A stretch of 64,000 nt of DNA from a virus: IMG/VR virus record IMGVR_UViG_3300021375_001810; one strand, written 5' to 3'. The stretch's first letter is position 1, and the number at the start of each line of letters is the position of its first letter. Shown one piece after another: positions 10,917 to 63,248 of the stretch. The position numbers and the translations under genes were made by a program. Below the pieces are notes generated by a model. The model ran no database searches. It was not told the DNA's origin and saw nothing but the letters and a program-made list of their open reading frames with translations.

Positions 10917-11504
10917 ATGAAAAATTTAATAATCGCAGGAATACTTGCAATTTTTGCAACAACTACTGTTAGTGCAGATGATTTTGATTATACAGAAGTA
11001 AACACTTTCGTAACTAAAGACAATTGGACCTTTGGTGTAAGAGAGTATGCTGATAAAGATTACTCTCAGCGTATCTTAAGATATGACTTTGAAGGAAATC
11101 CATATCGTTTAGAGTATAGAAAAATTGATCGTGCAGGCGTAGGCGAAGATTGGATTCGCTTTCAAGTCAAGCAGATTAAAAATGGAGCGTTCTTTTTCAA
11201 CTCAAGATTTGAACATAGATCAAGAGAAGGTAGAGAAAACGTTATGCGTTATCGCCCACAGTTTGGTTTAGAAGCACAAGGACAGCCTAACTTATTGTTT
11301 GGTTCACCGTTCTTAATCTTTGAACCACATGTACAATATACGTATGAAGGTAGTAATTTAGATTACAGCCATTTACAAACGTTTATAGGTACAAAATACA
11401 AGTTTGGATCATTCTCAGTGTCGCCTTTTGTTGAAGTCGATTTTGACGATGATTTTAAGAAAGATACAGCATTCTTTGGGGTTGACTTTAAACTCAATCT
11501 ATAA
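10917..11504 (+). CDS. Outer-membrane beta-barrel (small porin-like)
   Basis: Signal peptide (..TVSA/DD), alternating strands rich in Arg, C-terminal FGVDFKLNL. Confidence 0.65.
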   Translation: MKNLIIAGILAIFATTTVSADDFDYTEVNTFVTKDNWTFGVREYADKDYSQRILRYDFEGNPYRLEYRKIDRAGVGEDWIRFQVKQIKNGAFFFNSRFEHRSREGRENVMRYRPQFGLEAQGQPNLLFGSPFLIFEPHVQYTYEGSNLDYSHLQTFIGTKYKFGSFSVSPFVEVDFDDDFKKDTAFFGVDFKLNL

Positions 11505-11531
11505 TATACTTGTATTATAAATGATAAATAA

Positions 11532-11631
11532 ATGTGTAGGGAGATTGATTCTCCTTACATATTTTTAAATAAACTGAAACGCCGAAAGGGTTTCAATAGT
11601 TAACTTGCTTATTAAAGGAGGAAACATTATG
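11532..11631 (+). promoter_or_regulatory. ROSE-like RNA thermometer leader of hsp20
   Basis: Three hairpins; the last has CUUGCUU (11604-11610) pairing with SD AAGGAGG. Confidence 0.6.
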
Positions 11632-12090
11632 ACAAGACTAACTACCTTAGACATCCCATCACTACATAGAGCTACTATCGGCTTCGATAGAATTTTCAGC
11701 GAGCTAGAACGCCAGTTTGAAAATAGCCCTAATAAGAATGGATATCCACCATACAACATTGCACAAATCAACGAAGATGAGTATATGATCTCATTGGCTG
11801 TTGCCGGCTTTGGTATGGATAATCTTTCAATTGAAAAGGATAACAAACTTTTAACAATTGAAGGTACGGCTCCTAAAGGAGATGAAGACGTTAATTACCT
11901 ACATAAAGGTATTGGCGGACGCAACTTCCGTAGGGAGTTCACACTTGCTGATCACGTAGAAGTGAAAAGTGCAGGCCTTGAACTAGGTATGCTAAACATT
12001 CATCTAGTACGTGAAGTTCCAGAAGAACTACAGCCTAAGAAAATTAAGATCAATGAAGGTCTTACTATTGAAGGCGAAACAGGCAAGTAA
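11629..12090 (+). CDS. ibpA: Small heat shock protein Hsp20 (IbpA-like)
   Basis: IGFDR, YPPYNI, LAVAGF, YLHKGI, F.R.FTLA, P.KI.I. Confidence 0.95.
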   Translation: MTRLTTLDIPSLHRATIGFDRIFSELERQFENSPNKNGYPPYNIAQINEDEYMISLAVAGFGMDNLSIEKDNKLLTIEGTAPKGDEDVNYLHKGIGGRNFRREFTLADHVEVKSAGLELGMLNIHLVREVPEELQPKKIKINEGLTIEGETGK

Positions 12091-12138
12091 ATTGTCTAGG
12101 GGGAGTGGGAAACCCTCCCCCACTTAACGGAGAAAGAA

Positions 12139-12450
12139 ATGAGCGAAGAAGTAATTTTAGATGTAAAGATAGATGAGAAATTATCTAAACAAATATCTGA
12201 GCCACCAAAGTTTAAAGTAGTATTACTGAATGATGATGTTACGCCTATTGATTGGGTAATAAAAGTTTTAGTAGAAATATTTAGACATTCAAACGAGAAT
12301 GCTGAAAAAATAACATTAACCATTCATACCGATGGTTCAGGCGTTGCTGGCATATATACTTATGAAATAGCAGAACAGAAAGCACTTGAAGCACAAGACC
12401 AAAGTAGAAGTCAAGGCTTTCCATTACAAATTAAACTAGAGAAAGAGTAA
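12139..12450 (+). CDS. clpS: Clp protease N-degron adaptor ClpS
   Basis: KVVLLNDDVTP, IHTDG, YEIAEQK, GFPLQ. Confidence 0.93.
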   Translation: MSEEVILDVKIDEKLSKQISEPPKFKVVLLNDDVTPIDWVIKVLVEIFRHSNENAEKITLTIHTDGSGVAGIYTYEIAEQKALEAQDQSRSQGFPLQIKLEKE

Positions 12451-12452
12451 AT

Positions 12453-13019
12453 ATGAGCCTAAAAGATCTTACATGGGAACACCATAAAGACGCAGAAAGA
12501 CAAGAATTTGTAAAAGTTATGATGAGTGGTAAGATCAATCCAGAATTATACGCAATCTACTTATGGAATCAACATAAGAAGTATGACCTACTTGAAGCAA
12601 TAGCAGGAGCAAATGGCGTATTAGACGACCTTCCAGGTATCAGACGTAAACAAGAAATTGAAAAAGATTTCTTTGAGTTGTGGACTAAGAAAGAAGAAGA
12701 GCCACCGATACTACCTAGTACAGAAAAATACATCGAACATATGCGTAGTATAATGGCTGACCCCGAAGCACTGATGGCACACATTTATACGTTACACATG
12801 GGCGACCTAAGTGGCGGACAAATGATTAAGAAACGTATTCCAGGCACGGGTAATATGTATAACTTCAAAGTTGACACACAAGAATTAAAAGAAGCCATAC
12901 GTAGTAAAATTCATGACGGCATGGCAGACGAAGCAAAGTTTTGTTTCGAAACAGCAACCAACTTATTTAAAGAACTAATGGAGTTAGACATTGAGCGTTA
13001 TATGGAACCGGTTAATTGA
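12453..13019 (+). CDS. hemO: Heme oxygenase (biliverdin-producing)
   Basis: LKDLTWEHHKDAE (proximal His), AHIYTLHMGDLSGGQMI. Confidence 0.93.
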   Translation: MSLKDLTWEHHKDAERQEFVKVMMSGKINPELYAIYLWNQHKKYDLLEAIAGANGVLDDLPGIRRKQEIEKDFFELWTKKEEEPPILPSTEKYIEHMRSIMADPEALMAHIYTLHMGDLSGGQMIKKRIPGTGNMYNFKVDTQELKEAIRSKIHDGMADEAKFCFETATNLFKELMELDIERYMEPVN

Positions 13020-13683
13020 ATGCCAAGATGAAATTATAAGCATCTTTGACAGTCGAGCAAAAGAAATAGAAGAACCAGGGTTATCACATTTTAATCAACC
13101 AGAGAATGGTTGGATTAATCGTGTGTGGGCAAATGATAGTGTTCGTAGAGCACATATTGATGTTGTAGATGCACGTGAGTCTAGAGGCTTATGGATGATG
13201 CATGTATGTTGTTTTCCAGTTCTTAACAATGATGCGCCAATATACGGCTTTGATGTTATTGCAGGCAAAAACAAAATGACTGGAGCCTTCCATGACTTTA
13301 GTCCTAGTTCTAATCCAGACCATCCTATGATTGATGGATACAGAGAAAGTGTTGAAGAATTTATTCCTAGCAAACAAAGACAACTACCTGAATGGGCAAC
13401 AAATATTTTTACAGATAAAATGCTTGCTGCAGGCAATGTTAAAACAGAGGAAGAAGCAGTTGCTATTATTGACATTGCTATTGCTAATCTTAATGCTTGG
13501 TTTGACGAAGTACCATTATCCGACGGTGACGGTAATTGCGAGATAGTTGCAGCAAGTCAGAACTATTACTGTCATAACCAGCAACAAAATCCACATACGC
13601 CTAACGTTATGAAAACACTTGGTCTTGCAGAAGAAGATGTAGATAAGTTCTGCACAGACATGCTGTTTCCTAAAATAGTATAA
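12991..13683 (+). CDS. pcyX: Ferredoxin-dependent bilin reductase, PcyX/PcyA-like
   Basis: RRAHID, MMHVCCFP, PIYGFDV, R.LPEWA.IF, YCHNQQQNPHT. The Asp57/His71/Asp88 spacing matches the PcyX-type triad as recalled. Overlaps hemO. Confidence 0.85.
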   Translation: MSVIWNRLIECQDEIISIFDSRAKEIEEPGLSHFNQPENGWINRVWANDSVRRAHIDVVDARESRGLWMMHVCCFPVLNNDAPIYGFDVIAGKNKMTGAFHDFSPSSNPDHPMIDGYRESVEEFIPSKQRQLPEWATNIFTDKMLAAGNVKTEEEAVAIIDIAIANLNAWFDEVPLSDGDGNCEIVAASQNYYCHNQQQNPHTPNVMKTLGLAEEDVDKFCTDMLFPKIV

Positions 13684-34602: not shown

Positions 34603-34795
34603 TATTGAAGTTATGGAAGGACCATATGCAAAGGCTTTGACAGAAGATGTCGAAGGTGTTCTTTATCGAGAAATTAAAACTGTACGTGTAAAAGATGGCA
34701 TGCTAACTGAGTATGTTACAAAACGTAGTTATCATGAAAGTGGCGATTATAATGATACGTCATCAATTTCACCAATTATAAAGGTAGGATCATAA
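34592..34795 (+). CDS. Hypothetical protein
   Basis: 67-aa operonic ORF. Confidence 0.6.
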
Positions 34796-35382
34796 TGCCG
34801 TTAGTACCTATGGTAGTAGAGCAAGAGTCACGTGGCGAACGTTCATATGACATTTATAGCCGATTACTTAAAGACCGTATTGTAATGCTTAATGGTCCAG
34901 TTGAAGATAATGTTGCTAACTTAGTTGTTGCTCAAATGTTATTTTTAGAAAGTGAAAATCCTGATAAGCCTATTAATTTTTATATTAATAGTCCGGGCGG
35001 TGTAATTACAAGTGGCATGAGCATTTATGACACTATGCAATATATCAAATCGCCTGTTCATACTATTGTAATGGGACAAGCATGTTCAATGGGTTCATTC
35101 CTTGCTCAAGCAGGTGAGCCAGGCAAACGTAAGATGTTGCCATATGCTCGTCATATGATTCATCAGCCAAGCGGTGGTTCACGTGGTATGCAAAGTGATA
35201 TTGAAATTCAATATCAAGAAATAACTAAAATGAAAACTATCCTTACTGAGTTGTATGTTAAACATAATTCAAAAGGTAAGACATACGAAGACTTTGAAAG
35301 AGACATGGATCGTGATACATTTATGTCTGCTCAAGAAGCACTTGACTATGGATTAGTTGATCAAATTGTGGAGAAAAAATAA
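34795..35382 (+). CDS. clpP: ATP-dependent Clp protease proteolytic subunit
   Basis: [41 protein letters not shown]. Confidence 0.97.
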
Positions 35383-37797: not shown

Positions 37798-38253
37798 ATG
37801 AAAGAATTAGTAGTTTTAGTAGGAGCACTTTTGTTAGCAAGAGTGTTACCTATATTAGATCCAAGTTACGCAAACTTTACCCCATTGTTTGCTGTAGCAA
37901 TATTCTTTCCGTTAACACAAAATAAACTATTATCTTATTCTGTACCGCTAGGAGTAATGTTTTTATCAGACTTATTCTTAGGTTTTAGTGCAATAAATTT
38001 AGTAGTGTATTTTGTGTTAGCACTTATCATATCATTATCACGTAGCATTAACAATTATGTTTATACTAGTATTATTGGTATAGGACTGTGGCATGTTATT
38101 GTAAACTTCTTTGTGTGGTTATCAAATCCTAGTATGTCATTATTACAAACTTATGCAATGGCTATACCATTTGACTTTAAACTGTTACTAAGCACATTAG
38201 TATATGGTACAGCATTGTCATTATTATTACAAAGGAAACATGCTTACACTTAA
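37798..38253 (+). CDS. ECF S-component-like transporter (BtuM/DUF6580-like)
   Basis: NFTPL.A.A.F, P...MFLSD, NF.VW, Y..AIPF; five to six TM helices. Confidence 0.7.
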   Translation: MKELVVLVGALLLARVLPILDPSYANFTPLFAVAIFFPLTQNKLLSYSVPLGVMFLSDLFLGFSAINLVVYFVLALIISLSRSINNYVYTSIIGIGLWHVIVNFFVWLSNPSMSLLQTYAMAIPFDFKLLLSTLVYGTALSLLLQRKHAYT

Positions 38254-40057
38254 AAAAGGAAGAATTAAAAAAGATTTGAAAAGATTATTTAGAATTGACA
38301 ATATTATAACTATGGGCTTAATAGCACTACTGTTTTTTGGATTACGAGCCAATGCAGATGACCATTTAACATACCATGGACACACAGTTGACCCATTAGA
38401 AATTACAATATATGCATACCGTACAGCAAGTGATCACAGAGCAAAAACATACAGTTCAAATGTAATAGAAGCAGACGAACTAGACGATATAGAAGTATCT
38501 GGAGTTGACTTACAAACAACTGGACCTAAAGGACAACAAACAAGTTTGTTTATTAGAGGTACAAATAGCAATCATTCATTAATTGCTATTAACGGTATTA
38601 GTATTAAAGACCATAGTACAATTTCTGGAAATGACGATCTAGGACAAATAGGAATATTAGGGTTTGATCAAATTGAAATTATAAAAGGCCCGGCTGGTTC
38701 ATTGTATGGACCTGATGCTGTTGGAGGTGTAATTAACTTACAATCAGGTATTAATTATAATAATGAATTAAAGTATACACTAGGATCAAACAACCTAAAG
38801 AAACAAAATTTAAGTCTTGGTGAAAGTGTAGGTGCTCATCTTTTTAGCCTTGATATTGAAAAAGAATCTAGTGATAGTATCAGTGTAGCAGAAGGTCCTG
38901 AAACTGATCCATATGTATTTCGTAATTACAACTTTGTATACGAAACATATTTAGACAATGGATATGTGTTAACTGGAAATTTAATTGGTAGAAATAACGA
39001 TAGCAATCTTGACGGAGGTGGTGTTGATGATCTTGACTATACAGGTAATTGGAAATTTAACAATAGACAAATAGCACTAAAGAATAAAACTACTGCGTTT
39101 GTTTATAATAATTCAGAACATAAAAGACAATACACAGATGACGGATTGGTTAGTAACTATAACAGTATTAGCGATACATTTTTAACACATAAAACGTCTA
39201 CAATAAACGAAATAGACTTTACATATGGACTAGAGTACGTAACTTCTAAAGCAGATTTTGAAGTTAATTTGCCATATTATACTTCATTAGTAAATGCAAC
39301 ACGTAATAATACAGGACTATTCTTTGGTAGTGATTATGTAATAGACGGTACTGTTGGGTCGTTTGGTGTAAGATATGACAATGCTAGTAACTTCAAAAAC
39401 GAATGGACATATAGAGTTGGTATAGCAAGAGGCAATTATAGGTTAAGTCATTCAACAGGATTTAAAACTCCTACCGTTTACGAAATGTATGGTATAGATA
39501 ATTACGGTTTTGAAGGCAATCCAAACTTATTTTCTGAAACTAGTAAGTCTTATGAAATTGGATATAATGACGGAGCATTAGATGTTGCGGTGTTTACTAC
39601 TTCAGTTAAGGATACATTGACATACGAAGGTTCAACATATAACAATAAAGGTACAAGTAGACACAATGGTGTAGAAATACAATATACAAATACGTTTGGT
39701 CCAGTAACTCTAGTAAACGGTTATACATTATTGTTTACAGAAGATACAAACGGACAGGATCTTTTGCGTCGACCAAAACATAGTTACAACGGTAATATAT
39801 ATTATGATGTTGACAGTACTACTAGACTAAAACTTAATGCAAGGTATGACGGAAAGTATGACGATATTCACAGTTCGACTTGGCAAAGAACAGAAATGCC
39901 GTCAGTATCACTTTTTGATGTGTCATACCAAAAGTATGTGGACAACATTTTATTTGAAATAAAGGTTGACAACGTAACTAATAAGCGTTATAATAAACCA
40001 CATGGATACAAGCAGACAGGTAGAACATACCTTGCTAGTATTGCATACATATTTTGA
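38240..40057 (+). CDS. btuB: TonB-dependent outer-membrane receptor (BtuB-like)
   Basis: Plug SLFIRGTNSNH.L..ING, IEIIKGP..SLYGPDAVGGVIN; GFKTPT, GNPNL..E.S, LLRRPKH; C-terminal Y...GY...GRTY....YIF. Confidence 0.85.
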   Translation: MLTLKKGRIKKDLKRLFRIDNIITMGLIALLFFGLRANADDHLTYHGHTVDPLEITIYAYRTASDHRAKTYSSNVIEADELDDIEVSGVDLQTTGPKGQQTSLFIRGTNSNHSLIAINGISIKDHSTISGNDDLGQIGILGFDQIEIIKGPAGSLYGPDAVGGVINLQSGINYNNELKYTLGSNNLKKQNLSLGESVGAHLFSLDIEKESSDSISVAEGPETDPYVFRNYNFVYETYLDNGYVLTGNLIGRNNDSNLDGGGVDDLDYTGNWKFNNRQIALKNKTTAFVYNNSEHKRQYTDDGLVSNYNSISDTFLTHKTSTINEIDFTYGLEYVTSKADFEVNLPYYTSLVNATRNNTGLFFGSDYVIDGTVGSFGVRYDNASNFKNEWTYRVGIARGNYRLSHSTGFKTPTVYEMYGIDNYGFEGNPNLFSETSKSYEIGYNDGALDVAVFTTSVKDTLTYEGSTYNNKGTSRHNGVEIQYTNTFGPVTLVNGYTLLFTEDTNGQDLLRRPKHSYNGNIYYDVDSTTRLKLNARYDGKYDDIHSSTWQRTEMPSVSLFDVSYQKYVDNILFEIKVDNVTNKRYNKPHGYKQTGRTYLASIAYIF

Positions 40058-51590: not shown

Positions 51591-54500
51591 ATGGCACAAG
51601 GTAAACAAGACATTAATATCGGCGTTGAAGGTAATGACGGAACCGGCGATAGTATTAGAGAAGCGTTTAGAAAGGTAAATGATAATTTTACCCAACTATA
51701 TGCTGTATTTGGACAAGGTGGTTCGATATCATTTACTGAATTTAGTGATACTCCAACACTAACACAACTCCAAGAGAATCCTAGTACATTTTCAAGACCT
51801 ACTTTACCAGTAGTAGACGTTGCTGCTGAAGGTAGCAAGTTAGAATTTAGAAAATTAGTTAGTAACAGTTTCCTTGATGCATCTATCGATGATACTGTTA
51901 CATTTAGTTTAACACAAGGCGGTTACATTGTTGTAACAGCGGCTGGCGGACAACTAGAAGAAGACGAAAAACCAAAAATTAATTCAACTGGTGGTGGTAT
52001 TAATGCTTCAGGAAATATTATTGCTGGTATGCCAACCAGTCTTAATGACATTGAAAGTAAATTATCCGTTCTTAATGCTGCACACGATGGTGCAGGATAT
52101 ACAACTGACAGTGTTGCAATATCAAAAGGATTTGCAGATACCAATTATCTAAAGTCAACTGGTGGCGGCACTGGCGCACAAATTAGAGTTCGTACTGAAG
52201 ATCAAATCTTTACAGAAGATTATTCATTCACTATTGATAGTTTTACAGCAGGCGTTGCCAATATTACTGGTAGAACTGTAGACGGAACATTAATTACTGT
52301 TCCAGCAGGTCACGGACTTGATAGTGGTGCTAATGGTTTACCATTTAGATACGAAACTACAGGCACAAGTGCAACAGCAACACCAGCATCAAGTGCCGTT
52401 GCTCAACCACTTACAGATCTAAATCCAGTTTATGTTAGAGTTGCAAGTGCAACATCACTAGAATTTTATGAAAATGCTGAGGCTGCAAAAAATGCTACAG
52501 CAAATAGAAAGATCAGTTTCCAAGCAGGTACTGGTTCGGGAACACAATCACTAGTTGATGCAGAATATCAACCAAGTATACTAGACGGTAAGTTCCTTGC
52601 TAACGAAGCGATGCCTAGAGAGGCTGCACTTAGACGTCAAGGTGACCAAATGGATGGTACACTTTACCTTGACAAGCACCCAGGTGACTTAGCAAACATT
52701 ACAACAGGCTTAGAAGATTTACAAGCCGCTACTAAATTTTATGTAGACAACACAAGTTATGCAAGTAACGTAAACTTGTTTGTTAGTTTACAAGGTGACG
52801 ATAACCAAGTTAATACACCGGCAGGTAAAGAAGGTAGAGCATTAAGTTATGCCTATCGTACACTGAATGCTGCATTACAAAAAGCAGAAGAAATTATTGA
52901 AACAAGTAAGTTGGAACCTGGTCCGTATATGCAGACCATTACTATTAACGATACTACTCCAACTCATGTATTAAGTGGAAACACAAACACACTAGGATTT
53001 AAAGTTCCGGCAACATATAACGGACAACAAACAGCAAACTTTAAAGCATTAATGGATAATAACAAAGCATTTGTTCAAGAAGAAGTTATTGCTTGGACTA
53101 ATGCACAGATTGCAGCAGCTAATGCAGCTGTTAGTTTAGATCCTAATGTTCCAGCAGAAGCAGAATTAATTAAATGGAAAAACTTTACCTACGACGAAGA
53201 TATTTGTAAACGTGATGTAGGATTAATTTACGAAAGTTTAAAACTTGATGTTATTAGTGGTACTAACGCAAACAAACTTTCAAGACAAGCAGGTTTAAGA
53301 TACTATAGTAATGCCAGTGGTGCTATTGCTATTGGGCCACAAAAATCACAAACACTTGCATCAATTGCAAAAGTTGAAGAAATTACTAGACAGTATGTTT
53401 TAACTAATTCGCCATGGCAAGGTGGTGTAGGTAACCCAGGTGTTTATCAAACTGATGTACAGCAGAATGTTGTTGCACCAGGAACGCCAGCACCTGCAGA
53501 TGCTATTGCAAGAGTAGGTGATCTTTTTGATATTATTGAAGGTATTATTAATAACGGTATAAGTGGTGCACCGGTATTACAAGAAGGTTCTGTATACGTA
53601 ATTGAAGTTGACAACGGTGGCAACGGCAACGTATACCAAGGTCAAGCAAGTAACACAGATTTAATTCCAGGTAAGGTTATTACAGGATCTAAGTCAGGTG
53701 CTGTATCAAGAATTGTAAACTATTATAGAGGCGACGAACTAGGCGGAGCAGGCAATGACCAAATTGAACTTCAACTTGAAGAACCAATAGAATTTATTGC
53801 TAGGTCTGATCCGGGTGTTGCTACAGCTGATGATCCAACTTATGAAGCAGGTGATGTACTTGAGTTTGGTAATAAAGTAAGTCAACAAAATATTACAGTA
53901 TTTTTAGAAACTGGTATATTCTACGAAGACTATCCGTTACGTGTTCCAGCAAACGTTTCCATTAAAGGTGACGAATTTAGACGTACACACATTCGACCAA
54001 GAAATCGTGTATCACAGTCAAGATGGGCTAATCAATATTTCCACAGAGACAACTACTTTGATAATATGACACTACACAATCATAGTGTAGAAATTGAAGG
54101 TGAAGTAGAAGTAACATTATCGCAAGCGGTAACTGTTAATATAGGTGATAAGGTTACACAAACTGTTGCAACAGGAACAGCAATTGGTTTTGTACAAGAA
54201 AAGGCAACTAATTCAAACACTATAGTTGTACAATATTTTGACGGGTATGATCCAGTAACTAATAACGGTGTTCCACCAAGCGAAACAGGAAACGGATATG
54301 CTGATGTAGTTCAATTTGATACTGTAGTAAACAACAATATTTCAATTAATAATTCTGTACAAAGCGGAACATACTTAACAACAGCGCCAACACAGTATTC
54401 AAGAGATACAAACTTTGGTTATCATTATGCTCTTGACCCAAGACGCCCAATTAACACTCAGGCGAACAGTGTAGTTAATGCAGGAGGCTATACTAATGCT

Positions 54501-57500
54501 GTTTCTATCTTAGAAAAAAATAGAGATGCTATTGTACAAGAAGTTTTATTATTCTTAGATGAATCGTCAACTAATAATTTAAACAATGGTGGCTTTGGTG
54601 ATTATACTCAAGTTGAACTAACACTAACGGGCAACGTAACATTTAGCAGAGGCGACACAGTTACACAAGCAGGAAGTGGAGTAACTGGTAAAGTAAAAAG
54701 TGATAGCACTGGAAATTCAGTAATTATTGTAGGACCAGATGGTATATTTGATACTAGTGGCGAACTTTCAGTAGGTGGAGTAAGCAAAGGAGCAAATAGT
54801 GTTCCGGCTACAGTACCAGCGGCAGTTGCATTTACATATGGTCCAAAATGTGCAAGAGACTTAGGACTTATTGTTGATGCATTGGCATTTGACTTAGAAA
54901 AAGGTCTTGTTGATCAGTCGCTTGAAGCACAAGGAAGATACTATGCAGGTGCTGTAGAAGTAGGTCAAGAAGTTATAACTTCAGCAGCCATTTTAGAAAT
55001 TGGTAACATTGCACAGGCACTACTTGGTGCATCAGCAACACCAGTTGGAACTCCAAGTGTTCCAAGTTCAAGACAGGCGGCATCAGCATGGGATATTGCA
55101 GTGACAACATCACAACTTGCTGAAGCAGGAACAAGTACTATTGTTTCTGGATTATTAAATATTATAGTATTTGCGTTTAACAGCGAATACAATCCACCTA
55201 AGCACAACAAAGATATGGATGTCTTCTTAATGAATGACGCAACTATCTTACGTAACATGACTGTACAAGGTCATGGTGGATTTATGTGTGTACTTGATCC
55301 AGATGGACAGATACTTACTAAATCACCATACATACAAACAGGATCAAGTTTCTCACAATCAATAAACAAACAAGCATTTAGAGGTGGTATGTTTGTTGAT
55401 GGTTTTGTAAGTAACATGCCATTAGAAATTGTTGATAACATTACAAGTGCAGGTGTTAATGCACCATTTGAAATATTTGTAAGAAGTAGAAGAGATTCTA
55501 AACAAGTTAATAGTAACGGAGTAGGACTTGGATTATTTGCAAGACGTCCTCAACTACCTGCACCATTCTATGTAAACGGTGTACGTTACCAAGTTAATGC
55601 TATTAGAAACTATGACCCTACTAACGGTACAGCAGAACTTATACTTGATAAAAATTCAAACCCAGATGCAAATGATGAAGGACAAGGTTGGATTGGTGGA
55701 GAAAATTATCCAATCGTACTTCAAACAGCTGGTAACAGATCTATGCTTGGTAATGACTTTACGCAAGTTAATGATTTAGGTTACGGACTATTATGTACTA
55801 ACAATGGTATATCTGAAATGGTTAGTATGTTTACATACTACTGTCACGCAGCTTATTATGCAAATAACGGTTCAGAGATTAGATCGTTAAATGGATCAAA
55901 CGCTTATGGTAACTTTGGACTAGTTGCTGCAGGCGGTGACCCGAACGAAGTTGCACAAACTGGTTCATTAGCATTTAATACTTCACAAACAGGTAAAGTA
56001 TATCTGAACCCAAGTGCTAGTGCAAACGCTAACGCATTACAAACATTTATATATGCATATGATACAGATTTTGCTCCTTTACCAGAAGGTGAAATTGATG
56101 TAACATATAACGAAGAAAAAGAGATTGCTAGTATATCAGCAGCTAATCCTGTTGTATTAAATGTTGAAGCTCATGGATTTGTAGAAGGACAACGAGTACT
56201 TGTATCTGACAGTAATATTCCTACTACTGGTGGAGGTGCTAACCCAGGACTAGACGGAATTCGATATGTTGGTCCTAACCCATCAACAGGAACTTTAACA
56301 CTTTACACTGACGCATCATTGACTACAACATTAAACGGTTCGTCATATAATGCAGGTTCGTTAGGTAATAATGCTGCAATACAAGATGCCGGCGGTACAG
56401 CAACATCATCAAGTAGATTTGAAGTTGTATCTGTTACTGATGCACAATCAGCAGACGGTGTTCCGGGCGTTAACGAAGTTAAACTTACTCTAAGTGGAGC
56501 ATTAACTAATGTTCCTTACAACACAAGAGTAACTATTACAGCAGGAACTGGACAGACAGCAACGGCTCCTTTAGGTAGAATAACTAGACCAATTAAAGAT
56601 GGTGTTAATAACAGTACAATTTATGTAACACTACCAGAAAATAGAGATCAGTTTAGTGTTGGAGACACAATATACACAGACGGTACTACTACAAGTAGAA
56701 CTATTGCAAGTATTGAAACTAACTTAGATAAAGCAGGGCGTAAAACTATTATTGGTGTAACAAAAGCAAACCCTGTTGTACTCGAAACTATTGGACATAA
56801 CTTTATAGACGAAGACGCAATTACTATTGTCGACGGTTCAGGAATAACAGAATTAAATGGAACGTATTATGCTAAAGTTAGCACAACTACAGGCGGAACT
56901 ACTAACGATAAACGATATGTAGAACTGTATAGTGATTCAGCATTAACTACACCAGTGAACGGAACAGGATGGGGCGGATCATACACAGCAAGATCAGGTA
57001 AAGTATTTTTAACTGAAATCGGCGGCAACCCACTAATTGGTGAAAACGGTGCTGTATGGAAACTGTCGTTCTCTAACTCAACTAATGACGAGTCAGTAAG
57101 TACAGGCGGCTTAGCAAAGCCATTGTTTGCTGGTGAGTCAATAAGTATTAGAGCAAGAGCCAAATTTATCTTAGACAATGTACAAACTGTTCCAATTAGA
57201 CCTTCAACAGCAGTTGTGTTTGAAGAACAGCCAGAAAATACTTATCGTTCTATTAACTTTGACGTAACTCCAATTAGTACTTTTGATAATGCAGGTGAAG
57301 CAACTTTACCAGATGGTCAAAACATACTTACATTTGATAGTAACTATGATTATATTAGACAAAGAGTTGAGTATAATAACTATAAAGCACAGTTTAAACT
57401 AGTACTTGCAAGTGCTATAACTGGTGCAATAGCAGAAGGATCTGTTGTTAGACAAGGGTCTGCATCTGGTACAATAACAAAATCTGAAGGCATAGGTACA

Positions 57501-60500
57501 GAAGACCTTTATATTAAAGACTGGAACGGTACTGATTTTACTGTAGGCGGAGGAAACATTGAACACGATGCCGCTGGTGACGGAAACTTTAGTAGTGTTG
57601 GCGGACTGGCAGGAAGCGGCGCTGTTAAATTAAGTTACTTAACAACAAACGGATTTAAAGAATCGTTTGGTGGTACACCAGGTGATAGATACATTGCTAT
57701 TCCAGCATTAGGTACAGAGTCTACAGTAAGAATTCAAAATGCAGATATGATATTTGCATGGAAAGACAGAGTACATAAAGTTCTTGCATATCACGATGGA
57801 GCAGGAACAAGTATTGGTTCTATCGGAACAAGAGAAGCAGGAGAACCTAATTCACATGCAACAGGATTTGCGTATTTAGAAATTGACCGTAATCCAGTAA
57901 GTAACAAATATTATGATCCAGACGAAACAGCACCTACTACAGGTATTGCTGATACATTAAATCTTGGCAATGAAAGTGATAATGTTAACCTTGCAATTGG
58001 TGTTCCAGCAGGTGAAGGCGCAGAGATTACTGTTAACATTTCATTATGTAGAGCAACAGGACATGACTTTAGTAACATTGGTACAGGTGGATTTAATACA
58101 TCTAACTATCCAAATATTATCTTTGGACAACCTGCTTCAGATAAGACAGCAATCGTAACAAGTGATCCAACAGTAACAAAAGCACAAGTTTGGGAAAGAA
58201 ACAAAGGGCGTGTGTTCTTTGCATCAACAGACGAAGATGGATTCTTTAGAGTTGGTAAGTTCTTTACAGTTGACCAGGGTACTGGTACAATATCATTTAC
58301 AGCACAAATTAACATCTCAGGTCTAGACGGACTTGGATTTAAAGACGGTGAAATTATTAGTAAGTTTACAAGTAGTTTCACACAGGCAACAGCAGAACTT
58401 AAAAATGTCCCTACAGAAGTTGCTGTAGTAGATTACATTAATAGACGTTTAGGATTTGATGAATTTAACGTAGCAGATCCTGCACCACTTACAACAGTAA
58501 TGAGTGCAACCAATCCGCAATTAACACCAGTAACAGTAGGTGGAGAAACTACACATACACTGAACATGACAAATGGTAGAATTACTTTACTAAAACGTCC
58601 TGTTGCAGATACTGATGCGGCAACCAAAGAATACATTGATAACAGAATATTTGCAAATGATGAATTTGAAGATCTTCGTAACGTAAGTTTTTATCAAACA
58701 GATTACAATAACCAAAATGGTCAAAGTGATTTAATTGTACTAACAGGTAAAAAGAAAATATATGTCAAGTACGTTGCAGGAACTATGTTCTCAGTAAACG
58801 ATGTTATATATGGTGAAGATACTAATAGTGCAGGACGTATTGTTGACATTAGTGATACGTTTAAATTTGATAATGGTGAAAATAGTACAGACACAGCATC
58901 AGGACTTGATGTACAAGTTATAACTTATACTGTTTTACCATTAACAATGGTTAACTTAGATGCAACTGGAACTGTTGCTGTAAGAGGACAACTGTTAAGA
59001 CAACCTTCAACAGGCGCACAAGGTTATGTATTACATCCACAAACTGTAGTTGGATCAGGTAAAACAAGTGCTACACAGATAATTCTAAGAGAAGTAACAG
59101 GATCATTTAATGGTACTGCTATTGAACTTGTAAACAATCCAGGTGGTAGTGAAACTGTAGTTGCAACATCAGCATTGGTTACTAGCACAGCAGCTATTGC
59201 AGACGGTGTAAGTGGAGATCCTATAGACTTCCAAGCAGAAACTATATCAAACGGAAGTGTATCAAGAAATACTACACAAGGTAGAGATGGTCTTGCTGTA
59301 TATCCAATGGTTGAAGTTGCAAACGCAAGTGAAAGCAAAACTGGTAATCCTGGTGATGCATCACGTAGTGATATTAACATAACAGTAACTAGATCAGAAG
59401 ATGCTACAAGTGTTAACTTACAATATCAAGCAGAAAGTTTACTAGATGCAGATGTTAATACAAACGCAGACATACAACAACAAAAACTATTAATGCAAAA
59501 GGCTCCTGTATTACAGGACAGTGACGACTTTGAAGACTTTACTACTAATGGTAGAAGAGTAAGTCAAGCAAACAAAGGTATTGCTGCGTTCTCTGCAGAT
59601 GCATTTGCTGAAGATCAAATATTTGTATTCACAGGATCTATTAGTGCAAACGTAGGCGATATTATAACACAAGGTTCTAGTACTGGTTACATTGATAAAG
59701 TTATTAATGGCACTACTCTTAAAGTTAGAACAAGTGATACATTTGTTACAGGTGGAGCAACAACATGCTTTATTACACCAATAACAACATTTAACTTACC
59801 TGGAAGTGCTAACGCTGTACAACAGACTTCAAGCATAAAAGGAACACCGGTTGATTCAACTAGAACTATTACTACAATAGAAAAAACTGGTTTTGTTAAT
59901 GTTAAAGATAGAGGTATAACATTTGATAAGATTCAAGATATTCCAGAAAAAACTGTAATTGGTAGAGGTGACATTGGTGACCCTGCATACAATACAGACG
60001 GTATACCATACGCTGTTAGTTTTGATCAAATTATTGATTTAGGCGGGGCAATACAAGATAAGGATTTTGCAAACAGTACAATTACAGAAGTTGGCGGTTG
60101 GGTAATACAAACCGAAGGACTTGTTAGTGTTGCAAACGGTGCAACTGTAAGTTCAGGTGGTGTTAGTGCAACTGTACAAGGCGCTGTTACAAGTGAAAAT
60201 AAAATTATTGTTATAAATGCAACTAGTACTTTCCCAGGAACAGGAACACTTGCAGGAGTAACAGCAGACAGTCATGCATCTGCAGCAACTATTGTAAGTG
60301 CAACTCAATTCTCAAGTTCGGGTGAAGCACTAGTTAAAATGGCTGAAGGTGTATATGGTACTACACAGATTACTAAAGCAGGTGAAGGTAACCAATTAGT
60401 ACGTACACTTGATAGTAACGATCAAAACGATCTAACATTTGTTTCAGCAAACACTGAAGGATTTATTAATGTTAAAGGATTGTTAGTTGATAGTCGTAGA

Positions 60501-63248
60501 GCATTAGATACACGTACTGCCAGTGGCGATACATTCTTAGACATTTATACACCAAACGAAAATTTAGCAATGAGCATATCAGGTGTTACTCCTGGCGCTA
60601 GTGAAGTTGACGAAAGTATAGTTGAAATTCCTACAGCAAGTGTTGACATTGGTGACATGGGTATAAGAGTAGAGCAAGTTACTTTACCGGCAACAGGCAA
60701 AAACGGTCATGCCAGTGTGTTCCAACAGAACGCATCTGGTAATACGCCAGCAAATAGTAAACCACATTTGGCTGTTGATTGGGTGTTTACAAACTTTATT
60801 CAAGACCCAGACGATCTAACAGCAACTGGTTCAGGTATTGCATTAGGTGCAGTTACACCATTAACAACTGCTGGTCAAACAGCAATTATTGCTAACGGTA
60901 AAAAAGCATTATTAGCAGATGCAACAGGAGTTGTACTAAGATCAGGAGACGTCGATGTACTAACAGCATTATCAGGAACAACCACAGTTAAAAATGCATT
61001 TACTGTTGAAGGTAATACAACACTTGGCAGTGGCGATGATACATTAAGTATTGGGTCAACTATCATTACTGATGTTGACTTGCAAAGAACTAATGCAGAC
61101 TCCGCAGGTTATACTTTAGACATTATTAAGAAAACAAGTAGTGTTGCAAACGCAGACGGTGTTGGTACTATTAACTTTAGAAGCAATGATAGTGCAGGAC
61201 CAATTGCTACTTTACATACATACGGTGCTATAAAATCAACAATAGCCGATATTGCAACTGCAAGTAAAGATGGTAAACTTGAATTACAAGTACAAAGAAA
61301 TAATACTCTTACTACAGCAATAGCAATTGACGATGAAGTTGATGTTACTGGCGTATTAAATGTTAGTGGCGCACTAAATGCAGCTAGTACATTGAATGCA
61401 AACTTAACTACTGACGCAACTAGCACATCTTCAGGATCATTGATTGTAGATGGTGGTGCAGGTATTGCTAAGAAACTATACGTCGGTGGCAACTTTGACA
61501 TAGGTGGTAAGTTTAATGTAACAGCATCTAGTGGTAATACAGATATTGACGGTACTCTTGTTGTCAACGATACAACTGATGCATCAAGTTCAACAACAGG
61601 GTCAGTAATAATTGACGGTGGTGTTGGCATTGCTAAGAAATTGTATGTTGGAAGTGATTTAGATGTTACAGGAAATGCTGTAATTGACGGTGACTTAACC
61701 GTTAGTGGAAACTTTGACTTAGGTGATGATGTTACTGCTGATACATTTACTATTGCAAGTACACTTGACACACCACATATTAAAATTAGAAATACACAAG
61801 AAAACAACGGTGTTAGTGATAATATAATTGAATTCTTCCATGACACAGCAACACCAGCTGATAACGACTACTTAGGTTCATTACACTTTAAGATGGACAA
61901 TTCGGCAATTGCCACTGACGGTGGTGTTAATTCTGAAATGGTTGTTAGAGCTGTTGATGTAACTGGAGGCAGTGAAAAATCTACGTTTGACTTCTTAACA
62001 GCTAGTGGAACTAATGCATCTGCATTAAAATTCCAAATTGGTACTGATGCAGTTATAACTCATGCAAGTATTTTGCCTGATGCAAATGAGTCAGTGGACC
62101 TTGGTGCTGCTGGTCAAACGTTTGGACAAGTACATGCATCAGCATTTGTTGGACCAGTAAATGGGGATATTACAGGTGATATTACAGGTGATGTAACTGG
62201 TGACTTAACTGGTAATGCTGACACAGCAACTAGTTTGAAGGACGGCTCAGCTAATGAAGTACCGTACCAAAGCGCCACAGGCACAACTAGTTATGTAGCA
62301 GCAAACACAACAGCAACACAAAAATTCTTAGCAATGACTAATAGTGCAGCTCCAGTATGGGACACACTTGATGCAAGTGCTGTTGACAGTGGTACATTTG
62401 CTGATGCTAGAATACCAAGTTTAAATGCAAGTAAAACTAATGCTGGTACATTTGATGCTGATAGAATACCAAATTTAAATGCAAGTAAAATTAATGCTGG
62501 TACGTTTGATAGTGCTAGATTACCTGACTTGGCAGTTAGCGACTTTGGTGGTGCAGCTGTTCAAACAGGCACTGAAGTTGCAGCTGATGGTACAAGTTTA
62601 ACTGACAACGATACTTCATTCTTAACAGCGGCCGCTATTAAAAACTTTGTTGAAGGTAAAGGATATGCTACAAGCTCAGGTGGAGTTTCAGATGCAACGA
62701 ACGCAGCTAATTTTGCTGTTAACACTGCAGGTACACCAACTACTGGTAGTTTTAATGTTGTATTAGTTGCTAGTAACACTGGTAATAATGCGGCAAGAGT
62801 AGACAGCGGAGGACTTAGTTTTAATGTTGGTAATCAAACACTTAATACTACAGCATCGTCAGCAAACTACGCTGACTTGGCAGAGAAATATGTAGGCGAC
62901 GAAGCATACGAACCAGGTACTGTTGTTGTATTTGGCGGTGATGAAGAAATTACTGCGTGTACAATAAAAGGTGATCGTAAAGTAGCAGGTGTTGTATCAA
63001 CTGATCCTGCATACTTAATGAACAATCAGTTAGAAGGCGATACTGTTATTCCATTAGCACTAACAGGGCGTGTTCCTTGTAAAGTAATTGGTACTGTTGC
63101 TAAAGGTGACATGCTTGTAACTAGTGCTGTTCCTGGATATGCTATTGTTGATAACGATCCTAAGATGGGTACTGTAATTGGTAAGGCTGTAGGAACAAAA
63201 GAAGATGACGGCAAAGGCACTGTAGAAGTTGTAGTTGGTCGCTTATAA
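51591..63248 (+). CDS. Giant virion structural / tail-fibre protein (3885 aa)
   Basis: N-terminal NDGTGDSIREAF.KVN.NF (baseplate gp9/gp10-like), AATK.YVD fibre motifs, beta-helix-like segment, two ANPVV..HGF/HNF domains, GGxGIAKKLYVG repeats, C-terminal ADLAEKY..YEPGTVV domain. Confidence 0.85.
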   Translation: MAQGKQDINIGVEGNDGTGDSIREAFRKVNDNFTQLYAVFGQGGSISFTEFSDTPTLTQLQENPSTFSRPTLPVVDVAAEGSKLEFRKLVSNSFLDASIDDTVTFSLTQGGYIVVTAAGGQLEEDEKPKINSTGGGINASGNIIAGMPTSLNDIESKLSVLNAAHDGAGYTTDSVAISKGFADTNYLKSTGGGTGAQIRVRTEDQIFTEDYSFTIDSFTAGVANITGRTVDGTLITVPAGHGLDSGANGLPFRYETTGTSATATPASSAVAQPLTDLNPVYVRVASATSLEFYENAEAAKNATANRKISFQAGTGSGTQSLVDAEYQPSILDGKFLANEAMPREAALRRQGDQMDGTLYLDKHPGDLANITTGLEDLQAATKFYVDNTSYASNVNLFVSLQGDDNQVNTPAGKEGRALSYAYRTLNAALQKAEEIIETSKLEPGPYMQTITINDTTPTHVLSGNTNTLGFKVPATYNGQQTANFKALMDNNKAFVQEEVIAWTNAQIAAANAAVSLDPNVPAEAELIKWKNFTYDEDICKRDVGLIYESLKLDVISGTNANKLSRQAGLRYYSNASGAIAIGPQKSQTLASIAKVEEITRQYVLTNSPWQGGVGNPGVYQTDVQQNVVAPGTPAPADAIARVGDLFDIIEGIINNGISGAPVLQEGSVYVIEVDNGGNGNVYQGQASNTDLIPGKVITGSKSGAVSRIVNYYRGDELGGAGNDQIELQLEEPIEFIARSDPGVATADDPTYEAGDVLEFGNKVSQQNITVFLETGIFYEDYPLRVPANVSIKGDEFRRTHIRPRNRVSQSRWANQYFHRDNYFDNMTLHNHSVEIEGEVEVTLSQAVTVNIGDKVTQTVATGTAIGFVQEKATNSNTIVVQYFDGYDPVTNNGVPPSETGNGYADVVQFDTVVNNNISINNSVQSGTYLTTAPTQYSRDTNFGYHYALDPRRPINTQANSVVNAGGYTNAVSILEKNRDAIVQEVLLFLDESSTNNLNNGGFGDYTQVELTLTGNVTFSRGDTVTQAGSGVTGKVKSDSTGNSVIIVGPDGIFDTSGELSVGGVSKGANSVPATVPAAVAFTYGPKCARDLGLIVDALAFDLEKGLVDQSLEAQGRYYAGAVEVGQEVITSAAILEIGNIAQALLGASATPVGTPSVPSSRQAASAWDIAVTTSQLAEAGTSTIVSGLLNIIVFAFNSEYNPPKHNKDMDVFLMNDATILRNMTVQGHGGFMCVLDPDGQILTKSPYIQTGSSFSQSINKQAFRGGMFVDGFVSNMPLEIVDNITSAGVNAPFEIFVRSRRDSKQVNSNGVGLGLFARRPQLPAPFYVNGVRYQVNAIRNYDPTNGTAELILDKNSNPDANDEGQGWIGGENYPIVLQTAGNRSMLGNDFTQVNDLGYGLLCTNNGISEMVSMFTYYCHAAYYANNGSEIRSLNGSNAYGNFGLVAAGGDPNEVAQTGSLAFNTSQTGKVYLNPSASANANALQTFIYAYDTDFAPLPEGEIDVTYNEEKEIASISAANPVVLNVEAHGFVEGQRVLVSDSNIPTTGGGANPGLDGIRYVGPNPSTGTLTLYTDASLTTTLNGSSYNAGSLGNNAAIQDAGGTATSSSRFEVVSVTDAQSADGVPGVNEVKLTLSGALTNVPYNTRVTITAGTGQTATAPLGRITRPIKDGVNNSTIYVTLPENRDQFSVGDTIYTDGTTTSRTIASIETNLDKAGRKTIIGVTKANPVVLETIGHNFIDEDAITIVDGSGITELNGTYYAKVSTTTGGTTNDKRYVELYSDSALTTPVNGTGWGGSYTARSGKVFLTEIGGNPLIGENGAVWKLSFSNSTNDESVSTGGLAKPLFAGESISIRARAKFILDNVQTVPIRPSTAVVFEEQPENTYRSINFDVTPISTFDNAGEATLPDGQNILTFDSNYDYIRQRVEYNNYKAQFKLVLASAITGAIAEGSVVRQGSASGTITKSEGIGTEDLYIKDWNGTDFTVGGGNIEHDAAGDGNFSSVGGLAGSGAVKLSYLTTNGFKESFGGTPGDRYIAIPALGTESTVRIQNADMIFAWKDRVHKVLAYHDGAGTSIGSIGTREAGEPNSHATGFAYLEIDRNPVSNKYYDPDETAPTTGIADTLNLGNESDNVNLAIGVPAGEGAEITVNISLCRATGHDFSNIGTGGFNTSNYPNIIFGQPASDKTAIVTSDPTVTKAQVWERNKGRVFFASTDEDGFFRVGKFFTVDQGTGTISFTAQINISGLDGLGFKDGEIISKFTSSFTQATAELKNVPTEVAVVDYINRRLGFDEFNVADPAPLTTVMSATNPQLTPVTVGGETTHTLNMTNGRITLLKRPVADTDAATKEYIDNRIFANDEFEDLRNVSFYQTDYNNQNGQSDLIVLTGKKKIYVKYVAGTMFSVNDVIYGEDTNSAGRIVDISDTFKFDNGENSTDTASGLDVQVITYTVLPLTMVNLDATGTVAVRGQLLRQPSTGAQGYVLHPQTVVGSGKTSATQIILREVTGSFNGTAIELVNNPGGSETVVATSALVTSTAAIADGVSGDPIDFQAETISNGSVSRNTTQGRDGLAVYPMVEVANASESKTGNPGDASRSDINITVTRSEDATSVNLQYQAESLLDADVNTNADIQQQKLLMQKAPVLQDSDDFEDFTTNGRRVSQANKGIAAFSADAFAEDQIFVFTGSISANVGDIITQGSSTGYIDKVINGTTLKVRTSDTFVTGGATTCFITPITTFNLPGSANAVQQTSSIKGTPVDSTRTITTIEKTGFVNVKDRGITFDKIQDIPEKTVIGRGDIGDPAYNTDGIPYAVSFDQIIDLGGAIQDKDFANSTITEVGGWVIQTEGLVSVANGATVSSGGVSATVQGAVTSENKIIVINATSTFPGTGTLAGVTADSHASAATIVSATQFSSSGEALVKMAEGVYGTTQITKAGEGNQLVRTLDSNDQNDLTFVSANTEGFINVKGLLVDSRRALDTRTASGDTFLDIYTPNENLAMSISGVTPGASEVDESIVEIPTASVDIGDMGIRVEQVTLPATGKNGHASVFQQNASGNTPANSKPHLAVDWVFTNFIQDPDDLTATGSGIALGAVTPLTTAGQTAIIANGKKALLADATGVVLRSGDVDVLTALSGTTTVKNAFTVEGNTTLGSGDDTLSIGSTIITDVDLQRTNADSAGYTLDIIKKTSSVANADGVGTINFRSNDSAGPIATLHTYGAIKSTIADIATASKDGKLELQVQRNNTLTTAIAIDDEVDVTGVLNVSGALNAASTLNANLTTDATSTSSGSLIVDGGAGIAKKLYVGGNFDIGGKFNVTASSGNTDIDGTLVVNDTTDASSSTTGSVIIDGGVGIAKKLYVGSDLDVTGNAVIDGDLTVSGNFDLGDDVTADTFTIASTLDTPHIKIRNTQENNGVSDNIIEFFHDTATPADNDYLGSLHFKMDNSAIATDGGVNSEMVVRAVDVTGGSEKSTFDFLTASGTNASALKFQIGTDAVITHASILPDANESVDLGAAGQTFGQVHASAFVGPVNGDITGDITGDVTGDLTGNADTATSLKDGSANEVPYQSATGTTSYVAANTTATQKFLAMTNSAAPVWDTLDASAVDSGTFADARIPSLNASKTNAGTFDADRIPNLNASKINAGTFDSARLPDLAVSDFGGAAVQTGTEVAADGTSLTDNDTSFLTAAAIKNFVEGKGYATSSGGVSDATNAANFAVNTAGTPTTGSFNVVLVASNTGNNAARVDSGGLSFNVGNQTLNTTASSANYADLAEKYVGDEAYEPGTVVVFGGDEEITACTIKGDRKVAGVVSTDPAYLMNNQLEGDTVIPLALTGRVPCKVIGTVAKGDMLVTSAVPGYAIVDNDPKMGTVIGKAVGTKEDDGKGTVEVVVGRL
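62391..62526 (+). repeat. 54-bp (18-aa) tandem repeat inside the fibre gene
   Basis: GTFADARIPSLNASKTNA / GTFDADRIPNLNASKINA / GTFDSARLP; near-identical DNA. Confidence 0.85.

Follow-up and report, generated by a model that had tools for sequence, protein, structure and literature searches.

In our study we analysed the DNA of an uncultured marine phage of the T4-like (Kyanoviridae) type, a stretch of 64,000 nucleotides (nt) from the IMG/VR virus record IMGVR_UViG_3300021375_001810, to which we refer as the window and in which all genes lie on the plus strand. An open reading frame (ORF) at 51591-63248 encodes a giant protein of 3885 amino acids (aa), apparently a virion protein of the baseplate-attached fibre type. 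Two domains inserted singly in the N-terminal third of this gp9/10-type fibre protein are very probably true globins of the phycobiliprotein type, and the same DNA carries the genes of bilin-forming enzymes. We propose that Cys539 and Cys1087 of these domains bind a bilin on the phage particle, either phycoerythrobilin (PEB) or a similar pigment, supplied by the phage enzymes. For this putative function we estimate a probability of roughly 0.45.

The first phycobiliprotein-like globin domain comprises aa 477-661 (53019-53573) and the second aa 965-1201 (54483-55193); both were recognized by a repeat profile with independent E-values (i-E) of 1e-29 and 7.5e-23, respectively. The initial annotation had described two mutually homologous helical domains around Cys539 (codon at 53205-53207) and Cys1087 (codon at 54849-54851), and its peptides and coordinates were all found to be correct. 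In BLASTP the two copies share 36% identity over 69 aa around the CxRD motif (E 5e-7). According to the alignment, the site reads Cys539-Lys-Arg541-Asp542 in copy 1 (53205-53216) and Cys1087-Ala-Arg1089-Asp1090 in copy 2 (54849-54860), with the cysteine, arginine and aspartate equivalent to Cys84, Arg86 and Asp87 of phycobiliproteins. Copy 1 also holds Asp553, Gly557, Asn559, the tyrosine of an RYY motif (~aa 571) and the threonine of QKSQT; copy 2 retains Asp1101, Gly1105, the tyrosine and the threonine, and has a valine in place of the family asparagine at +20. A profile built independently from the repeats of a homologous protein, P0086, had its only matches in the giant protein at these two copies (i-E 1.3e-14 and 1.2e-7), and a six-frame hmmsearch of the entire window returned no others. 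In AlphaFold (AF2) models copy 1 forms six helices, with a predicted local distance difference test score (pLDDT) of 77.3 and a predicted template modelling score of 0.71. Copy 2 has five core helices of pLDDT 80-93 at an overall pLDDT of 65.8 and one extra low-confidence helix in its C-terminal tail (aa ~1180-1201). Between its first and second core helix an insert of ~80 aa (54579-54827; model residues 33-115) is evident from alignment and model, which was predicted with low pLDDT as four short strands.

Several independent comparisons connect these domains with phycobiliproteins. The Pfam family PF00502 recognized sister repeats in the homologues P0086 and P0090 with 30.4 and 28.8 bits (cut-off 22.2), covering up to 106 of 155 profile positions. 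When a profile of 38 repeats was searched against all sequences of the PDB, every one of the 26 matches at E<=10 was a phycocyanin alpha chain (best E 0.0075), and the aligned region begins in helix B, passes the loop and reaches K-C-x-R-D-x-G-Y, where the repeat cysteine falls on Cys84. For a profile-profile comparison, cpcB-cpcA operons were pulled from cyanobacterial genomes by a degenerate DNA pattern and 19 CpcA and CpcB subunits were aligned. With this set hhalign assigned the repeats a probability of 91.8% (E 7.4e-7) over 91 columns corresponding to phycobiliprotein positions 40-142; the link is visible in this type of comparison only, as the CpcA/CpcB hidden Markov model (HMM) run directly on the window gave nothing significant. 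The initial annotation had placed Cys539/Arg541/Asp542 and Cys1087/Arg1089/Asp1090 on Cys84/Arg86/Asp87 by eye, and HMMER as well as hhalign arrived at the same alignment. Furthermore, the fold that had been suggested for the domains was supported by Foldseek, where the top ~50 matches of the copy 1 model were all phycobiliproteins (probability 1.0, template modelling score 0.55-0.7). VIA-align, run without Foldseek against 48,161 chains, ranked the bilin-binding domain of ApcE (4xxi_A) first for both copies, with Z 12.9 for copy 1 and 13.4 for copy 2 and a root-mean-square deviation of 2.2-2.4 Å over 116 residues. Below ApcE followed allophycocyanin (Z 12.8 for copy 2), phycoerythrin (12.0 for copy 1, 11.9 for copy 2) and photocobilin (8j2w_B, 13.2 for copy 2), and then RsbR-type and sensor globins, the latter at Z 9-12. 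This ranking agrees with the clade described by Rockwell et al. (PMC10151467), which consists of the bilin-binding globins together with their outgroup. Among phycobiliproteins the closest by sequence is C-phycocyanin alpha (CpcA, e.g. 6jpr_A and 8iml_A), and the closest by structure are the ApcE domain, allophycocyanin (8or7_A) and phycoerythrin (5aqd_M).

Some results count against this kinship. The two window copies themselves were not matched by PF00502 even at E 10, and searches of the whole giant protein and of each copy against Pfam and PHROGs likewise yielded no phycobiliprotein match for them. The Foldseek E-values were just 0.02-0.2, a Z of ~13 can be reached by helical models through their arrangement alone according to VIA-align's own note, and all structural matches were obtained with predicted models rather than solved structures. 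Moreover, the most invariant residue of the family, the aspartate at +14, has no phycobiliprotein counterpart. Nevertheless, four lines agree, namely Pfam on the sister repeats, the PDB profile, hhalign and two structure aligners, and therefore we regard the domains as phycobiliprotein-type globins. The module is genuinely, if distantly, related to phycobiliproteins; it spans helices B to H, retains the globin-type helix order B-E-F-G-H and the K-C-x-R-D-x-G-Y/L motif at the start of helix E, and shares the glycine at position 102. It lacks the X-Y helix hairpin: structural alignments begin at phycobiliprotein residues 31-51, hhalign spans only positions 40-142, and the repeats of tandem arrays adjoin each other directly. 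With respect to assembly, the domain therefore does not qualify as a phycobiliprotein subunit. A search of 5.8 billion proteins for stand-alone relatives of one repeat (77-247 aa) returned none at E<=1, a scale at which true phycobiliproteins are hidden as well.

The window domains are copies of a repeat of ~140 aa which occurs 2-22 times per giant phage fibre protein. We collected 448 copies with a profile whose seed consisted of the 22 repeats of P0086 only. Conservation was highest for Asp(+14) (100%), followed by Asp(+3) and Tyr(+30) (96% each), Asn(+20) (93%), Arg(+2), Gly(+18) and Thr(+46) (92% each) and the site cysteine (90%), so that the conserved columns are mostly polar. In the 401 copies with the cysteine, Arg, Asp, Asp(+14) and Tyr(+30) were present in 100% and Thr(+46) in 96%. 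Of the 46 copies without it, which mostly have leucine or phenylalanine instead, 22% retain Arg, 61% Asp, 63% Tyr and 54% Thr, whereas Asp(+14) was still found in 98% and Gly(+18) in 91%; as these copies cluster at orthologous positions, the independent losses are fewer than 46. The cysteine, arginine, aspartate, tyrosine and threonine are therefore kept or lost jointly, which looks like the behaviour of residues of one ligand site, and Asp(+14) and Gly(+18) are scaffold residues. With a mean of 0.93 cysteines per domain the site cysteine is practically the sole one, which makes a role in disulfide formation unlikely.

The protein that carries the two domains had been addressed as a giant virion protein in the initial annotation, and this was borne out by its other parts. 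A baseplate-docking domain similar to the N-terminus of T4 gp9/gp10 lies at aa 5-42 (51603-51716; PF07880 T4_gp9_10_N, 27.1 bits at a cut-off of 25, E 5.1e-6) and a tail-fibre PHROG region at aa 2146-2286 (58026-58448; phrog_9851, E 2.8e-38). Our homologue search with aa 470-1210 retrieved 113 giant proteins of 2189-4289 aa, many of them with PF07880, and the homologues in cultured cyanophages carry annotations as short tail fibre, baseplate wedge or virion structural protein. Based on the N-terminal domain, the PHROG match and these annotations, we therefore read the product as a baseplate-anchored fibre protein. Near its C-terminus it ends in a conserved module (aa 3749-3879; 62835-63227) that matches phrog_22593, for which PHROG lists an unknown function. 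Short beta modules of the type GD-x-V/I-x-Q ... G-x-V are scattered through the giant ORF, e.g. at aa ~870-900, 2490-2520 and 2790-2820. The insert of copy 2 is one of these recurring modules and sits at the position of the ApcE loop, between helices B and E. We also noticed a faint Pfam match to E1_FCCH at aa ~1731-1766 (E 0.088). The single match of the whole protein in a phmmer search against the PDB, mitochondrial ribosomal protein S11 (E 0.0056), was judged spurious.

The enzymes for a bilin are encoded 38 kb upstream of the fibre gene. As had been stated in the initial annotation, the window encodes a heme oxygenase (HO; hemO, 188 aa, 12453-13019; PF01126, E 2.3e-20, 73.8 bits) and a PcyX-like ferredoxin-dependent bilin reductase (FDBR; 230 aa, 12991-13683; PF05996, E 2.3e-16), whose genes overlap by 29 nt. 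PcyX produces phycoerythrobilin, a bilin without the C15=C16 double bond on which phytochrome-type switches rely. ApcE attaches its bilin without a lyase. We suggest that during infection the HO and the PcyX-like reductase would form phycoerythrobilin or a comparable bilin from the heme of the host, which Cys539 and Cys1087 might then capture as a thioether. Attachment would be autocatalytic, as in ApcE and the BBAG globins discussed below, or depend on an unknown lyase, because no known lyase was found in the lineage of the window. The finished particles would bear the chromophore on their fibres. In the most speculative step, it would render the behaviour of the fibres, and hence adsorption, dependent on light; alternatively, the chromophore might be photoprotective or act as a sensitiser. 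Since phycoerythrobilin cannot photoisomerise at C15, a phytochrome-type switch is unlikely in the window phage; more fitting roles would be the capture of energy, photosensitisation or protection.

To see how enzymes and domain are distributed, we considered 231 IMG/VR relatives of the window reductase. The closest of them are carried by 80 contigs, and 21 of the 50 longest of these contained the domain. Among the contigs of at least 77 kb with PcyX it was present in 13 of 14, the exception being contig G073. Thus, enzymes and domain travel together in the window's own lineage. Where both co-exist, as in the window, we consider the domain a candidate bilin acceptor.

The distribution of the domain in cultured phages speaks for bilin binding. 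Hosts of cyanophages make bilins. While megablast and tblastn with the window region found nothing among the GenBank phages, tblastn with the P0086 repeats detected the domain in 188 of 50,697 GenBank phage records. By name 187 of these are cyanophages (Synechococcus, Cyanophage, Prochlorococcus), the remaining record being named only "Marine". We scored ten complete genomes, few and related, with the repeat profile and Pfam families. P-HM2 (NC_015284) and P-HM1 (NC_015280) each have four domain copies together with the T-type bilin lyase CpeT (PF06206), FDBR and HO; S-PM2 (NC_006820) has nine copies and CpeT but neither FDBR nor HO. Three copies and CpeT were found in Syn9 (NC_008296) and in P-SSM4 (NC_006884), where the copies are weak (E 3e-4) and the FDBR is pcyA. 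Neither the domain nor CpeT was detected in P-SSM2 (NC_006883; FDBR and HO present), HTVC008M (NC_020484; no FDBR, no HO), Pelagibacter phage Mosig (MT647606; FDBR and HO present) and the podoviruses P-SSP7 (NC_006882) and P-GSP1 (NC_020878). For P-SSM2 and HTVC008M the lack of the domain was confirmed by a six-frame search of the whole genome. CpeT thus accompanies the domain in five of five genomes and was found in 0 of the five that lack it, and the phage's own fibre may be its substrate. The cpeT gene of S-PM2 (163952-164479) is situated 1.45 kb upstream of the domain-bearing fibre gene (165928-177267, 3779 aa) on the same strand. The interval between the two holds three small genes, one of them for a 2-oxoglutarate (2OG)-Fe(II) oxygenase. 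The RefSeq record of this phage places many tRNA features inside the 3779-aa "short tail fiber" coding sequence under the same locus tag, apparently an error of annotation.

It has been described that P-HM1 and P-HM2 adsorb in the light only, and that the myovirus P-SSM2 adsorbs in the dark (PMC6628666). Light-dependent adsorption of S-PM2 is attributed to Jia et al. 2010 in the same paper (as cited in PMC6628666). The three phages with a reported light requirement, P-HM1, P-HM2 and S-PM2, carry the domain, and the dark-adsorbing P-SSM2 and the two podoviruses do not. One could envisage that a fibre-bound bilin is the light sensor in cyanophages such as S-PM2 and P-HM2, that phage CpeT is a lyase for the fibre rather than for the antennae of the host, and that hemO-pcyX supplies the pigment in phages of non-photosynthetic hosts, although we rate this extended scenario as unlikely. 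The correlations with CpeT and with light-dependent adsorption are leads, not results, and their basis of 8-10 related genomes counts against leaning on them. As the cultured phages S-PM2, P-HM1, P-HM2 and Syn9 carry the domain, their virions can be examined directly.

A number of further observations weigh against a bilin on the fibre. Only two of 50 uncultured contigs chosen for the domain encoded an FDBR. Among the 20 longest of the domain contigs HO was found in the same two and psbA in none, so that most of these 20 show no visible source of bilin. The 20 contigs are fragments amounting to ~5.4 genome-equivalents according to CheckV. The two observed cases against 5.4 expected (Poisson p ~0.09) indicate that the enzymes occur in a minority of the carriers, yet are still compatible with their universal presence. 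Conversely, the complete genome of the cultured phage Mosig encodes hemO and a PcyX-like FDBR without the domain. The repeat-profile search was empty, an unfiltered six-frame hmmsearch over all 141 kb found nothing, and C-x-R-D occurs in no ORF of at least 50 aa; the bilin of this phage must therefore serve another purpose. The same combination of HO and FDBR without the domain was seen in P-SSM2. Enzymes thus occur without the domain, and the domain probably occurs without the enzymes. The initial annotation had expected the domain to explain the orphan hemO-pcyX genes of phages and had regarded its occurrence apart from bilin genes as an argument against a pigmented particle, which was in part what we observed. 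Because of the phages that have the enzymes without it, the domain cannot be the general or sole explanation, and the enzymes do not serve the fibre pigment solely; within the window's lineage the two were found together in 13 of the 14 long contigs.

The genetic context of the enzymes also counts against a bilin on the fibre. In the window hsp20, clpS, hemO and the FDBR gene form a tight, co-oriented block (11482-13683) headed by a sigma-70-like promoter (11482-11510; TTGACT, 17 nt, TATACT), which suggests that hemO and the FDBR gene are expressed early with genes of protein quality control and not with the late structural genes. Seven instances of the T4-type late promoter word TATAAATA were counted in the window (8.8 expected by chance), and neither hemO nor the giant gene is preceded by one. 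The lack of a bilin lyase in the window, noted already as a caveat in the initial annotation, was confirmed insofar as the Pfam scan of 50 of its ORFs detected neither CpeT or CpeS nor another lyase family, with no separate search for E/F-type lyases. Moreover, 36 uncultured contigs of the same phage type (~10 genome-equivalents) yielded neither CpeT nor CpeS. Finally, the chemistry of phycoerythrobilin makes a role as photoswitch doubtful.

Many of these points would suit a descendant of a phycobiliprotein-type globin that has become a pigment-free bead in the fibre shaft, with a site that has another role, such as binding a ligand on the host surface, binding a metal or joining chains of the fibre. 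In this case the globin would have been captured probably once, by an ancestor of the marine T4-like phages. We consider this a serious possibility at somewhat less than even odds, since many domain contigs lack a visible bilin source, bilin enzymes are found without the domain and the window lineage has no detected lyase. Arrays of up to 22 copies are typical of structural repeats, the X-Y hairpin is absent, and the family has invariants of its own, Asp(+14) at 100% and Asn(+20), which are not found in phycobiliproteins. However, at an overall identity of ~11-13% it is precisely the three chromophore-holding residues that are shared with phycobiliproteins. The site residues vanish together with the tyrosine and the threonine when the cysteine is lost, as expected for a ligand site, and structure alone hardly accounts for a single, near-invariant, unpaired cysteine in a particle protein. 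In addition, the cultured carriers are almost only phages of bilin-making hosts, and the domain tracks CpeT.

The cysteine might also act as a nucleophile for a partner other than a bilin, for instance in a covalent bond to the host surface as in thioester adhesins, or by binding heme or another cofactor. It is single, conserved and located within a polar site, and the globin fold, which also gave the sensor-globin matches, serves heme and other ligands. Heme ligation would call for a histidine, however, and none is among the conserved columns; the glutamine that would be the thioester partner is conserved in only 74%, and the Cys-x-Arg-Asp context is specific to bilins (PMC10151467). We therefore regard such a function as quite improbable. 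Least probable of all is convergence or chance, i.e. a helical repeat with K-C-x-R-D-x-G that AlphaFold pulled towards a phycobiliprotein shape because of the motif: the missing Pfam match of the window copies, the marginal PDB and Foldseek E-values and a Z often reached by helical models could be taken in its favour, but the curated Pfam cut-off was passed by sister repeats, the hhalign columns extend far past the motif, the PDB profile matched phycocyanin exclusively, and two structure aligners put bilin-binding globins first for two separately modelled copies.

If the domains bind bilin as proposed, a comparable case is known from small proteins of heterotrophs. The bilin biosynthesis-associated globins (BBAGs) of heterotrophic bacteria were described by Rockwell, Martin and Lagarias (2023) as phycobiliprotein paralogues that function outside photosynthesis; BBAG-1 and BBAG-3 have the CXRD motif, the genomes that encode BBAGs also have HO and an FDBR, and BBAGs were reported to bind bilins without a lyase (PMC10151467). 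Judged by this published description, the window is partly comparable: its CXRD globin, HO and FDBR are in one genome, and their co-occurrence is strong in the window's lineage (13 of 14) but not general. In contrast to the small, stand-alone, cytoplasmic BBAGs, whose gene lies beside that of the FDBR, the phage globin is a domain of a virion fibre encoded 38 kb away from it. A study from 2024 left the purpose of phage hemO-pcyA/X unresolved and named a BBAG-type partner as "one possibility" (PMC11480375). The globins of photocobilins and photoglobins (8j2w, 8j2y), which also bind bilin and ranked high in the structural comparison (Z 10 for copy 1), differ in their fusion to B12-binding domains, in lacking CxRD and in belonging to bacterial photoreceptors instead of virion proteins. 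From phycobiliproteins the phage domains differ by an identity of only ~11-16%, by the lack of the X-Y hairpin, owing to which no alpha-beta monomer, trimer or rod is expected, and by their location, singly or in tandem, within a virus fibre protein with its own invariants Asp(+14), Asn(+20), Tyr(+30) and Thr(+46). Their chromophore is putative.

The giant proteins of T4-like cyanophages, such as YP_195253.1 of S-PM2 (3779 aa) and the products of two ORFs of P-HM2 (4458 and 3682 aa), share the repeat module and its motif with the window protein, are likewise giant and fall into its baseplate or fibre gene class; the window protein has its gp9/10-type N-terminus in common with many homologues. 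These phages have bilin-making hosts and CpeT, whereas the window lineage has hemO and a PcyX-like gene and no known lyase was found in it. The annotations of the cyanophage proteins do not mention a phycobiliprotein-like domain, and by full-text search we found no published description of a phycobiliprotein-like or globin domain in phage fibres. Phycobiliprotein-type globins were previously known from the antennae of cyanobacteria and algae and, since 2023, from small bilin-binding proteins of some heterotrophs. The phage fibre is therefore a new setting for this fold, with the chromophore site kept under selection. This bears on the questions of why phages of non-photosynthetic marine bacteria make phycoerythrobilin, what causes light-dependent adsorption in some cyanophages and what the substrate of the phage lyase CpeT is, with the limit that pigment genes and domain are not obligate partners. 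If a fibre-bound light sensor did exist, the phage particle itself would be light-responsive.

With respect to its remaining content, the window (36-40% GC) encodes a serine hydroxymethyltransferase (1-1143), ClpP (34795-35382) and a TonB-dependent receptor with plug domain (38204-40057). In the Pfam scan GMP reductase, Hsp20, ClpS, a FecR protein, a CHASE2 cyclase, a CsgF/CsgG/curlin block, DNA ligase, QueD, UvdE and an IscA-type protein were identified as well. Judged by the bilin reductase, the nearest cultured relative is the Pelagibacter phage Mosig (Kyanoviridae) with 51% identity. The genome of the latter (MT647606.1) combines hemO and the PcyX-like FDBR gene with a ferrochelatase and four 2OG-Fe(II) oxygenases beside the neck genes. 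For many of the uncultured contigs with the domain or PcyX (G004, G014, G080 and others) the CheckV completeness implies genomes of ~350 kb, e.g. 318 kb at 85% and 262 kb at 73%, compared to 141 kb and 147 kb in the cultured pelagimyophages Mosig and HTVC008M. It may merit attention that the TonB-dependent receptor, a type involved in heme or iron uptake, occurs in the same phage as heme-degrading enzymes. Besides, a gene for an IscA-type iron-sulfur assembly protein (PF01521; 51206-51591) extends to 1 nt before the start codon ATG of the fibre gene. Such an iron-sulfur helper gene is an odd neighbour for a structural gene, and FDBR requires ferredoxin.

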